Positions 53,533 through 55,642 of a DNA stretch of 64,000 nucleotides are shown here, piece after piece. Every line of letters starts with the position of its first letter. Within the stretch, counting starts at the first letter, position 1. This stretch comes from Escherichia phage Ptacy1532, in sequence record PQ863255.1; one strand, written 5' to 3'. Below the pieces are notes generated by a model, which saw nothing but the letters and a program-made list of their open reading frames with translations, searched no databases and was not told the DNA's origin. Made by a program: the position numbers and the translations under genes.

Positions 53533-55563
53533 TTAACCTCTATTCAATGAACATTTAGGAGAATTACAATAAACTTGATTCATAGAACCAAGCGTACAAC
53601 TTTCAGCATCGCGCCACGGAATCTGCTTAAAACACTCTGAACAGTAACCGAGGGTTGACCACATTGCTTTGGTGAAGTCAGTGCTTCGGTTTCCGTCGAA
53701 GCTGACAACAGTTTTGCGGAGAGCTGTTCGTGATTCAGGAAACACACCTGCTTTCTCAGCAGGTTCCTCCTTTTTTGGCTTAGTTGAGATTGCAAAAATA
53801 CTGTTGCTACGTTTCTCAACATAAGCATCAACAACATCCTCCAGAGTGATGCCTGTCTGTTTCGCTGAGGAAGGTAATACAGTCATACGACCAATCATGT
53901 CTTCAGTTACACGTAAAGCAAATTCAGGACGACGGGCGTTTGTTGTATCTGTTGCTTTAATCCAGACATAACCATCTTTGATCGTAGCATTAGACACTTT
54001 CTTCTTTACTTCTACAGCGCAGACTTTACAGATATCTTCACCACGAAGACGACTAAGTTCATCATCGAACTCGTTCTCTGTTTTAACTTCACCGCAGATT
54101 TCACAAACACCAATAGGAGTTTCCTCCTCTTCTTCGTCTTTAGATTTAGTCAAACCTTCCAGACATTCAGGATGCCAGTAGCACTGATATGCGAAGACTG
54201 CTTTAGGTGCGTCCTTCCAATCAATGTGTTTGTCACAACCGCCACAGTCACCATGAGAGTGTGCTTCCCAGAATTTACGAGTGATAGTAACGCCATTCTT
54301 GTTGACGAAACTATCATTCATGTCAAAAGGGATATCATCATCAAAGTCAGCAGTAGTAGACTCAGGCTCCTTTTTCTCCAGAGATGGGTCAACAAAACGA
54401 CCTGCTGTGATCACTAAACGGACCATAGCATTGACTTCGGAGATGCAGGATACTGTCCCACGGTAAACAATTTTAGGGTCTTTCAGGGCATCCTGATAAG
54501 CCTTAATGTCTACGTTATGAACATCACCTTCGATATACTCTTGAGACTTCTCATCGTAGATATAACCAATCATCTTACCACGAGAAGGAACAGCACCAGC
54601 AGTTGCATAAGGAATAAATTCATGTGGTGTAATCTCCACAGTCATGTCGCGGCGAATGTCAATATTTCGATCGCTTGCGATTTTGTTTTGACTTACCACT
54701 GCGTTTCTTCGACGAACGTCTGCCGCTGTCACGCCCGGCTTCGTGTCGTAAGGATTGCTTGTATTGCTTTTTGAGGAACTTTGATAGTTGCTTTGGCTGT
54801 AGTTGTTCGAGTAATAACTGCCCCAACGATTGGCTACCGTAAAAACCGGAAGCTCGTGGGCGACCTCTTCAACCAGAGTCATGCCGTTGTTTGACATATC
54901 AAAGATATACTCTGTACCAACTTTACATTCAAAATGCTCGTCAATACGGTTCTTATGAGACTTAGAACGCTTCAGAATCCACATCAACATATCTTCTTCA
55001 GAAGCACCAAACCAATCTCTGTTACAACGTGCGAGGTGGAATGGACGCTCTTCGTTACGGATGATATGAAGGCGGTTATCAGAAGCATCATGCCAGATTA
55101 AAGTGAAAGCACCATCCAGCTTTTGAATAGTCTCTGCTGCACCAATGGTGTTAATAGAGTGGCAGATGTTCTCACTGTCTACCTCGAAGTTTTTGCTGTC
55201 AGGTAACAGATCTTGGTCCATCAAGGTTCCATTATGAACCAGAGTGATGTTACCATGTTGGAAAGGATGGGCGTTCTTGGCGTTAACTGCACCTTTCGTT
55301 GCATGACGACTGTGACCAACAATCCATGAAGGTGCTACAGTGTAAGCTGTTTCACCAGTGGTGTGCTTCTTGTACTCATCTTGTAAGATGAATGCGAAAG
55401 AAGGAAGAGCTTCTTTATAAGTGAAGACTTCCTTAGTGCTTTTACGCTGACCAAAGATACCAGAGGAATGTTGTCCTCGGAATACTCCAGCATAAAAGAG
55501 TTGGTTGAATACGTCTAAATCGGTGCTTGACAGATTACCGCCAGCTAATACGATGCCACAAAT
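53533..55563 (-). CDS. class-II (Ntn) glutamine amidotransferase domain protein with Cys-rich C-terminal region
   Basis: ORF track starts at 55224 (TTG), but the frame is open to 55566; upstream residues CGIVLAGG...RGQHSSGIF...LVHNGTL match GATase-II N-terminal Cys, RGxD-like and HNG motifs; probable AUU start at 55563 with AGGTGG SD. Confidence 0.55.
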   Translation of the reverse strand: MCGIVLAGGNLSSTDLDVFNQLFYAGVFRGQHSSGIFGQRKSTKEVFTYKEALPSFAFILQDEYKKHTTGETAYTVAPSWIVGHSRHATKGAVNAKNAHPFQHGNITLVHNGTLMDQDLLPDSKNFEVDSENICHSINTIGAAETIQKLDGAFTLIWHDASDNRLHIIRNEERPFHLARCNRDWFGASEEDMLMWILKRSKSHKNRIDEHFECKVGTEYIFDMSNNGMTLVEEVAHELPVFTVANRWGSYYSNNYSQSNYQSSSKSNTSNPYDTKPGVTAADVRRRNAVVSQNKIASDRNIDIRRDMTVEITPHEFIPYATAGAVPSRGKMIGYIYDEKSQEYIEGDVHNVDIKAYQDALKDPKIVYRGTVSCISEVNAMVRLVITAGRFVDPSLEKKEPESTTADFDDDIPFDMNDSFVNKNGVTITRKFWEAHSHGDCGGCDKHIDWKDAPKAVFAYQCYWHPECLEGLTKSKDEEEEETPIGVCEICGEVKTENEFDDELSRLRGEDICKVCAVEVKKKVSNATIKDGYVWIKATDTTNARRPEFALRVTEDMIGRMTVLPSSAKQTGITLEDVVDAYVEKRSNSIFAISTKPKKEEPAEKAGVFPESRTALRKTVVSFDGNRSTDFTKAMWSTLGYCSECFKQIPWRDAESCTLGSMNQVYCNSPKCSLNRG

Positions 55564-55642
55564 TTTCTAATCCACCTGAAGGGTAAACCCTTTCATCTAA
55601 TTAACCTTTAAATTGTGCCCCTTTATCAGAGGCACCCATTGA

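Follow-up and report, generated by a model that had tools for sequence, protein, structure and literature searches.

A probable AUU start codon in a class-II amidotransferase gene of phiEco32-like phages and its recurrence in the enzyme family

Start region of the amidotransferase gene

We analyzed the start of a gene for a class-II N-terminal nucleophile (Ntn) glutamine amidotransferase-domain protein in Escherichia phage Ptacy1532 (record PQ863255.1), using a stretch of 64,000 nt that is called here the window. The window represents a phiEco32-like Kuravirus, 99.8% identical in DNA to phage Ptacy1479 and ~97% identical to phiEco32, and the gene, located on the minus strand, is the homolog of phiEco32 gene 83 (phi32_83, YP_001671828.1). 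We put at roughly 85% the probability that it is translated from the AUU codon at 55563-55561, in which case its product would begin with fMet-Cys-Gly-Ile-Val. The start region has the following features.

53533..55563, minus strand: full coding sequence (CDS) of the class-II (Ntn) glutamine amidotransferase-domain protein, 676 codons plus stop as counted from ATT; length and start as in phi32_83
55558..55560, minus strand: TGT, catalytic Cys1 (Ntn nucleophile), invariant column C1 of family alignment A2
55561..55563, minus strand: ATT, proposed initiation codon (AUU), standing where 71 of 80 family loci have ATG; invariant in alignment A1
55567..55569, minus strand: in-frame TAG, one codon (AAA) before the ATT, read directly
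55572..55577, minus strand: AGGTGG, Shine-Dalgarno (SD)-like, with an in-frame GTG inside, 8 nt before the ATT; anti-SD duplex of -5.9 kcal/mol
55567..55596, minus strand: predicted mini open reading frame (mini-ORF) MKGFTLQVD, nine codons plus TAG, read directly
55579..55592, minus strand: small predicted hairpin AAGGG-UUUA-CCCUU (-4.6 kcal/mol), ending one base 5' of the SD

On the minus strand the region reads ATG (55596-55594) AAA GGG TTT ACC CTT CAG GTG GAT TAG (55569-55567) AAA ATT (55563-55561) TGT (55560-55558) GGC ATC GTA TTA GCT GGC GGT. An earlier reading of the bare letters (the sequence-only reading) had noticed that the frame of ORF 53533..55224 stays open for another 114 codons up to the TAG without any ATG, GTG or TTG, and that this extension encodes CGIVLAGG, RGQHSSGIF and LVHNGTL. 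It had also noticed that ATT directly precedes the Cys codon, with AGGTGG exactly 8 nt upstream and a nine-codon mini-ORF running to the TAG. When the minus strand was read again, every coordinate given there proved correct, and the open frame, the translated motifs and the arrangement around the ATT were all found as described. The first ATG, GTG or TTG after the TAG in the frame of the gene is the TTG at 55224 of the ORF list. According to our own scan, the 114-codon stretch without a start is the longest in the window, the runner-up on a plausible gene being 35 codons long.

A sequencing error at the TAG, which the earlier reading wanted checked, is excluded because the 81-nt leader stretch is present in all 98 of 98 related public phage records at no less than 90% identity (at least 99% in 67 of them). 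The arrangement is kept across these 98 genomes. Frameshifting or bypass was considered and rejected: both other frames meet stops within 8-12 codons of the junction, and therefore only AUU initiation or read-through of the TAG reaches the frame of the Cys.

The N-terminal domain and its enzyme class

The 112 codons from the Cys to 55225 are real coding DNA under clear purifying selection in the frame of the gene. Compared with SU7, ECBP2, KBNP1711 and EP335, four relatives from two other genera, they show 41-48 synonymous against 22-25 nonsynonymous codon differences. Since synonymous differences outnumber nonsynonymous ones over this stretch, the N-terminal domain is most simply regarded as translated.

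For the 676-residue protein Pfam reports GATase_6 (1e-14), GATase_7 and GATase_4 and nothing else, and residues 2-517 of the ATT-started protein align to positions 2-497 of the 498 positions of the PHROG 4736 profile. A PDB search with the single sequence returned no matches, and a family profile, built from 29 family members, was needed. Its best PDB match is E. coli GlmS (4amv, E = 8e-20), with PurF at 1e-14. Position 2 of the profile aligns with chain residue 1 (Cys) of the GlmS glutaminase domain 1xff; the comparison with the GlmS N-terminus that the earlier reading had proposed accordingly matches M-C-G to that terminus and places Cys on Cys1. The motifs RG, H-x-R-x-A-T, HNG and (V/T)D(S/T)E are likewise aligned between the family profile and GlmS. 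Within alignment A2, residues H83, R85, T88, H109, N110, G111 and D128 are invariant, and they align to HTRWAT, HNG and TDTE of GlmS, whose glutamine-binding and oxyanion residues are Arg73/Thr76, Asn98-Gly99 and Asp123. The Ntn four-layer alpha-beta-beta-alpha fold is predicted from the Pfam GATase_6/7 matches together with the PDB profile match over 247 positions. Class-II (Ntn) amidotransferases require a Cys nucleophile that is free at the N-terminus. The nucleophile is present in the phage protein, and its placement at position 1 of the mature chain would depend on the AUU start.

Judged by its predicted domains, the protein is not a GlmS. Sugar-isomerase (SIS) domains are absent: Pfam shows the three GATase families only, and the alignment with GlmS ends at about residue 250. 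Because there is no SIS domain, the record name 'L-glutamine-D-fructose-6-phosphate aminotransferase' is unsupported and misleading. The C-terminal ~400 residues (window 53533-54780, minus strand) contain several zinc-ribbon-like CxxC pairs and an acidic stretch and have no Pfam match. The Kuravirus protein has 676 residues, compared with about 430 in most family members.

The codon before the catalytic cysteine

About 65 of 87 called homologs begin with MC(G). The Cys codon directly follows ATG in 71 of 80 IMG/VR loci, ATT in eight and ATC in one; three of the 71 ATG loci were assigned by eye, the automatic register having missed an ATG TGT GGA just upstream. In Kuravirus, Suseptimavirus and Nieuwekanaalvirus (Gordonclarkvirinae), as well as in Aeromonas phage BUCT695, the codon is invariably ATT (alignment A1). 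The phage gene has AUU where orthologs have AUG, no canonical in-frame alternative and an SD at functional spacing. We assign the initiator to codon 55563-55561 because of the purifying selection on the N-terminal domain, the alignment with Cys1 of GlmS, the M-C-G starts of homologs, the ATG at this position in most loci and the fit to PHROG 4736. Initiation at AUU with the N-terminus Met-Cys-Gly-Ile-Val, as the sequence-only reading had suggested, is thus favored by the comparative data, in which ATG, ATT or ATC precedes the Cys in 80 of 80 loci and the noncanonical codons recur together with an SD. The homolog in phage SU10 was detected by mass spectrometry with nine peptides in a phage preparation (PMC4281155).

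Several points weigh against an AUU start. In the SU10 proteomics table (PMC4281155) the protein is given as 63.8 kDa, the size of the truncated model, and therefore N-terminal peptides were not scorable; the GenBank CDS of SU10_085 (KM044272) is, by contrast, 2031 nt long from ATT, corresponding to ~75 kDa. The SD of the window, at its -5.9 kcal/mol, is only about average for the family, and the 5-bp hairpin is not significant alone, being equaled in 114 of 500 shuffles. The AUU also overlaps a UUG in another frame (A-UUG-UGG), a possible competitor for initiation. Of the 17 non-ATG leaders described below, seven were found through the 18-mer GGATTAGAAAATTTGTGG, which contains both ATT and TAG; they are biased for both and are not independent evidence for the TAG. 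Finally, the lineages are phylogenetically non-independent, and the statistics on SD, hairpin and endonuclease genes ignore kinship, so that their p-values are indicative only.

Recurrence of AUU and AUC in the family

Seventeen distinct non-ATG (ATT or ATC) leaders were collected, and the 13 other proteins long enough for comparison are 30-65% identical to that of the window. Truncated homolog calls led to ATT-TGT in locus L011, whose protein has 38% identity to that of the window, and in L012, while in L009 (65% identical) the caller had chosen an upstream in-frame GTG over the ATT. A locus survey added L056 and L061 (both ATT) and L098 (ATC), and pattern scans added L015, L109, L127, L148, L152, L119, L145, L139 and L146. 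Most matches of the AGAAAATTTGTGGNATHGT scan were due to chance and had no amidotransferase downstream; the same was true of 28 of the 45 metagenome matches to the 18-mer.

Two of these loci differ in detail. At 1501-1515 of L009 the in-frame GTG, three codons upstream of the ATT and not separated from it by a stop (GTG ACT AAA ATT TGT), has a good SD (AAAGGA-N5-GTG); this locus may use either a four-residue propeptide (MTKI-C) or an AUU start. In L098 (IMGVR_UViG_3300014205_000429, junction at ~1498) ATC stands before TGC-GG, the SD CAGGAGG is among the strongest (-11.6 kcal/mol), and there is no hairpin.

In a neighbor-joining tree the non-ATG leaders are scattered among ATG lineages, as in (L009_ATT,(L010_ATG,Gordonclarkvirinae_ATT)), the deep nodes being poorly resolved. 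Most of the divergent non-ATG leaders have SD duplexes of -9.3 to -12.1 kcal/mol, unusually strong next to the -6.3 (sd 1.5) that ATG leaders average, and A-rich spacers of 7-8 nt, with the consensus GGAGGAU(U)AG(A)AA(A)-AUU. A perfect stem of at least 5 bp that ends at -12 to -16, abutting the SD, is present in 12 of 17 non-ATG leaders versus 12 of 54 ATG leaders (Mann-Whitney p = 0.002), and an energy-based test of the hairpin gave p = 5e-4 for the same contrast. The stem sequences of the leaders with a hairpin are all different. This recurrence, along with the location in the loop of the only BUCT695 change that affects the hairpin, supports the predicted window hairpin at 55579-55592. The weak start codon, found again in many divergent lineages, is very probably a selected feature of this phage enzyme family and not an accident.

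A near-frozen leader

The leader around the start is strongly conserved as DNA.

55556..55608, minus strand: invariant block, AAAGGTTAATTAGATG...GGATTAGAAAATTTGTGG, in the five Gordonclarkvirinae sequences of alignment A1

From AAAGGTTAATTAG through TGTGG (55608-55556) there are zero substitutions among the aligned Kuravirus, Suseptimavirus and Nieuwekanaalvirus sequences, whereas in the adjacent coding DNA ~40% of codons carry synonymous changes. From ATTAGATG onward the block is shared with Aeromonas phage BUCT695 except for two substitutions: its hairpin loop has TTA for TTT, and its SD has GCG for GTG. BUCT695 is a member of a different family, and its protein, 51% identical to that of the window, groups with the ATG-bearing L029-31.

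Within 55561-55612 (minus strand) the leader contains two tandem units resembling ribosome binding sites (RBSs), 30 nt apart, AAAGG-TTAATTAG-ATG and AGGTGG-ATTAGAAA-ATT, with ATTAGA repeated. The real start of L010 is AATTTAAAGG-N8-ATG TGT, and the same 10-mer with the same spacing precedes the mini-ORF ATG of the window. The tandem units may reflect RBS duplication or a 33-nt in-frame insertion. The mini-ORF ATG might then be the ancestral start, separated from the TGT by an inserted 33-nt block; MAFFT instead aligns ATT directly with ATG in the alignable leaders, and we claim neither reading.

No further copies of the leader were found in the window. A scan of 55300-55800 against Rfam 15 at permissive thresholds gave best E-values of 0.55-9, far under the gathering scores, and the fold of the 141-nt junction is unremarkable (z = -1.85) save for two hairpins. 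We also suspected that TTTAAAGGTTAAT might be a middle or late promoter of the phiEco32 gp36 type, the block then being a transcript 5' end; nothing was found in support. The gp36 motif, according to the SU10 paper, is tAATGTATAtA at three middle and three late promoters (PMC4281155).

Gene neighborhood

The neighbors of the gene form a cluster of an Amidoligase_2 gene (55643-56746), a COOH-NH2 ligase, an ATP-grasp enzyme and a gamma-glutamyl cyclotransferase. Such a cluster of Amidoligase_2, COOH-NH2 ligase, ATP-grasp and gamma-glutamyl cyclotransferase was reportedly predicted by Iyer and Aravind in 2009 to make a peptide-like metabolite or modification. In the window, 79 nt separate the amidoligase stop codon (55645-55643) from the ATT. 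Endonuclease-free ATG relatives have a tighter junction: the amidoligase stop overlaps the amidotransferase (GATase) start (TAATG) in L158 (~1497-1503) and lies 7 nt before it in L156 (~1488-1503). These two junctions suggest that direct translational coupling of amidoligase and GATase could be the default arrangement. One further element lies in the gap.

55615..55637, minus strand: terminator-like hairpin just past the amidoligase stop codon, present in both the minimum-free-energy and the centroid fold

This hairpin shows compensatory changes in SU7 and ECBP2 (GGGCGC...GCGC versus GGTGCC...GGCAC; alignment A1), and a terminator is annotated at its equivalent in record WFI101126. It may act as a partial terminator, a processing site or a stabilizer within an early operon. 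The SU10 paper places the amidotransferase gene in the early region transcribed by sigma70 (PMC4281155). The SU10 protein was nevertheless found in the phage preparation, though early and supposedly nonstructural.

Initiation at AUU and alternative explanations

If the gene starts at AUU 55563-55561, initiation would be directed by the AGGUGG SD 8 nt upstream and the expected N-terminal peptide would be CGIVLAGGNLSSTDLDVFNQLFYAGVFR. Removal of the initiator Met would expose Cys1, which Ntn amidotransferases need free. The typical setup of the family for a weak start consists of a strong GGAGG-type SD, an A-rich spacer of 7-8 nt and a small hairpin abutting the SD, which might keep the SD exposed or stack on the SD helix. 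The UAG could serve as a safety stop for in-frame upstream initiation, either at the mini-ORF AUG or at the GUG inside the SD; as it would end any such start, no N-extended, inactive enzyme devoid of a free Cys1 would be made. It lies 3 nt before the AUU, as at thrS-infC, and ribosomes that finish the mini-ORF may therefore reinitiate on the AUU. The weak codon would hold down or condition expression of the glutaminase. AUU works as a start in E. coli, at 1-2% of AUG in one reporter set (bioRxiv 10.1101/063800) and 6-8 times below AUG in another, where an A/U-rich enhancer raised it ~3-fold (PMC3592434). Overall, AUU initiation amounts to between a few percent and ~15% of AUG, depending on context, and IF3 discriminates against it (PMC3592434; bioRxiv 10.1101/063800).

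Reinitiation might even be the main route, with ribosomes finishing the mini-ORF at the UAG and restarting on the AUU 3 nt downstream. This would refine the AUU reading and turn the mini-ORF into a coupling or regulatory device, and we regard it as doubtful. The geometry of stop, 3 nt and AUU is identical to the UAA GGU AUU of infC, and in UAA-GGU-AUU reporters about half of initiation was reinitiation and about half de novo (PMC3592434). Gordonclarkvirinae and BUCT695 retain both the mini-ORF AUG and the UAG, the mini-ORF has its own AAAGG 8 nt before the AUG, and the same UAG terminates a full-length upstream gene in L139 and L152. However, the mini-ORF is lineage-specific: L011, L127, L119 and L145 share the downstream 18-mer and the string GAT TAG AAA ATT TGT but have no mini-ORF, nor does any other ORF end at their TAG. 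Moreover, the BUCT695 mini-ORF has no SD (AAATGTAATATTAG ATG), the hairpin starts 4 nt past the mini-ORF AUG, within the ribosome footprint, and L056, L109, L061 and L098 have no nearby in-frame stop. Control by the upstream ORF, one of two alternatives raised by the earlier reading, may thus contribute but does not replace the AUU start. The other, read-through followed by autoprocessing, is disfavored and in our estimate highly improbable. Translation would start at the mini-ORF AUG and pass the UAG, and a 12-residue propeptide, MKGFTLQVDxKI, would be removed autocatalytically to expose Cys1. B. subtilis PurF has an 11-residue autoprocessed propeptide; the mini-ORF is in frame and of comparable length, and in L009, where no stop interrupts the GTG ACT AAA ATT TGT, a short propeptide is conceivable for that lineage. 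Yet TAG, though rare, is a genuine stop in this phage, where 4 of the 57 ORFs of at least 120 residues end with it, and ARAGORN, run on the whole window, found no tRNA and hence no suppressor. The four loci that share the 18-mer have the same TAG but no upstream in-frame start, and 71 of 80 family members have no propeptide of any kind. The two changes in the BUCT695 mini-ORF are both nonsynonymous, with none synonymous, which argues that its peptide is not what is conserved. An upstream in-frame ORF that is conserved as coding and present wherever the stop is, as expected of recoding, was not found. That the N-terminal domain is not made at all, the protein starting at TTG 55224 or at a later ATG and the upstream frame being a decaying remnant, seems to us next to impossible. 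Several public records annotate the gene in this way, and the 63.8 kDa of the SU10 table agrees with them; against it stand the strong purifying selection on the 112 upstream codons, the intact catalytic motifs aligned to GlmS and the arrangement kept in 98 genomes. A start at TTG would, in addition, cut the Ntn domain after LVHNGT.

A different question is why the leader is nearly invariant, and one possible answer, which we hold tentatively, is DNA mobility. Free-standing HNH homing endonucleases would target the amidoligase/GATase junction, and the leader core, with the ATT and the first codons, would spread between phages by co-conversion or persist as part of a homing site; the AUU may then hitch-hike or shield the allele from cleavage. 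This would explain the sharing of the leader and is compatible with AUU initiation. Endonuclease genes do lie upstream of the ATT in relatives: directly upstream in L152 (HNH_3+HTH, E = 3e-13; ORF 808-1260, minus strand), in L119 (HNH_3+HTH, E = 1.5e-7; ORF ending 13 nt before the ATT), in L146 (HNH_3+AP2, E = 7e-14; ORF ending 16 nt before the ATT) and in L139 (PHROG 374, E = 6e-64, ~90-581). L148 carries the tail of an L152-like endonuclease gene. BUCT695 (L004, NC_070977.1) has a decayed HNH gene at 3804-4005, in an unannotated 280-nt gap between gp041 and gp042, of which a 29-residue N-terminal fragment (PHROG HNH, 3e-5) and a 43-residue HTH_3 fragment (5e-7) are left. Endonuclease genes occur at the junction in 6 of 17 non-ATG leaders versus 1 of 42 ATG loci (Fisher p = 0.0016), and all six of these leaders belong to the exact-18-mer class. 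L139 and L146 have GATase genes that are 98% identical, an identity that breaks off at exactly 16 nt before the ATT, and their endonuclease genes beyond this point are unrelated; endonuclease-free relatives of L139 have a plain ATG with an overlapping or abutting amidoligase stop. The leader core of BUCT695, with its two substitutions only, accompanies a protein that is 51% identical and groups with ATG lineages. On the other hand, Gordonclarkvirinae show no junction insertion among the matches listed, each of which is a single full-length piece, and no endonuclease gene or remnant was found in the 79-nt junction of the window itself. ATT leaders of other sequence (L056, L109, L061, L012, L009) follow the amidoligase gene and not an endonuclease gene, the cleavage site is only hypothetical, and the loci were partly found through the 18-mer. 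In the relatives, the junction looks like a homing-endonuclease hot spot, and an exchange of flanking DNA driven by the endonucleases could plausibly account for the presence of one leader core, with its ATT, in distant phages. A bolder version, which we consider unlikely, is a mobile unit (hairpin - CAGGAGGAUUAGAAA - AUU - UGUGG) that is tied to free-standing HNH endonucleases repeatedly invading this junction and that co-converts between unrelated phages, the ATT being kept for cleavage immunity or by hitch-hiking and the Kuravirus leader being a footprint after endonuclease loss.

Public annotation and implications

The ATT start is not new as an annotation. The phiEco32 record gives phi32_83 as a 2031-nt CDS with this ATT as its first codon, and the GenBank records of SU10 and Bas91 likewise annotate the CDS from ATT; because of these records the core claim is not novel. 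It is present in public data as annotation only and is applied inconsistently. The expectation of the earlier reading that gene callers would truncate the gene is borne out by Ptacy1479 (PQ863256), SU7 (NC_070980), ECBP2 (NC_018859), KBNP1711 (NC_023593), EP335 (NC_070979) and BUCT695, all annotated from internal ATG or TTG starts, at the cost of Cys1 and of as many as 114 N-terminal residues. The same truncation affects about 12 metagenomic homologs (e.g. P0066, P0037). In BUCT695, the annotated gp042 begins at an internal ATG, and the catalytic Cys is thereby lost. A limited literature search returned nothing relevant on the ATT start of this phage gene. By its sequence the gene would join the AUU-initiated genes, and the family pattern and endonuclease association are apparently undescribed within that search. 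What appears to be new is the recurrence of AUU/AUC, usually with a strong SD and an adjoining hairpin, the infC-like geometry of stop, 3 nt and AUU, and the presence of HNH genes at the junction in relatives that have the same 18-nt leader core.

Gene callers thus remove the catalytic domain in many deposited phage genomes, and for this widespread phage gene cluster both the predictions of function and the family profiles are corrupted as a result. A simple and general remedy is to check for ATT or ATC directly before TGY-GG. With AUU or AUC and a recognizable RBS architecture in ~10% of its loci, the family offers a natural system for studying selection for weak starts. Candidates for the selected role are the dosage of a glutaminase that might be wasteful, a timing during infection that responds to IF3, and coupling. 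If the endonuclease association is true, it would link start-codon choice to the dynamics of selfish elements, and in the bolder version a selfish element would drive the use of a noncanonical start codon in a phage metabolic gene.

Comparison with known systems

The closest counterpart is phi32_83 of phiEco32, which is the same gene (97% DNA identity over the region) with the same 2031-nt CDS and ATT, without material difference. GlmS, PurF and AsnB have the N-terminal Cys nucleophile and the glutaminase motifs in common with the phage enzyme. Only the glutaminase domain is common to them, however, as the phage C-terminus is not a sugar isomerase, phosphoribosyltransferase (PRTase) or synthetase. 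B. subtilis PurF resembles the phage case in that the Cys must be exposed at the N-terminus and in that the mini-ORF is similar in length to the PurF propeptide, but the would-be phage propeptide is broken by a stop codon and has no equivalent in 71 of 80 family members.

The junctions of the relatives resemble intronless homing of the T4 Seg/Mob type: different HNH genes occupy one intergenic site beside a conserved gene start, the identity boundary is sharp, and one copy is decayed. The window differs in having no endonuclease gene, and homing in the relatives is putative.

The only confirmed AUU-started genes of E. coli are infC, coding for IF3, and pcnB (PMC3592434; bioRxiv 10.1101/063800). 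As in the phage gene, AUU occupies the required start position in both and has an upstream SD. In infC (UAA GGU AUU) and in the phage gene (UAG AAA AUU) exactly 3 nt separate an in-frame stop from the AUU. The preceding ORF of infC is a full gene, thrS, and its AUU serves the autoregulation of IF3, whereas the phage gene follows a nine-codon mini-ORF and codes for a metabolic enzyme. Unlike the single-gene cases of infC and pcnB, the phage AUU recurs across an enzyme family.

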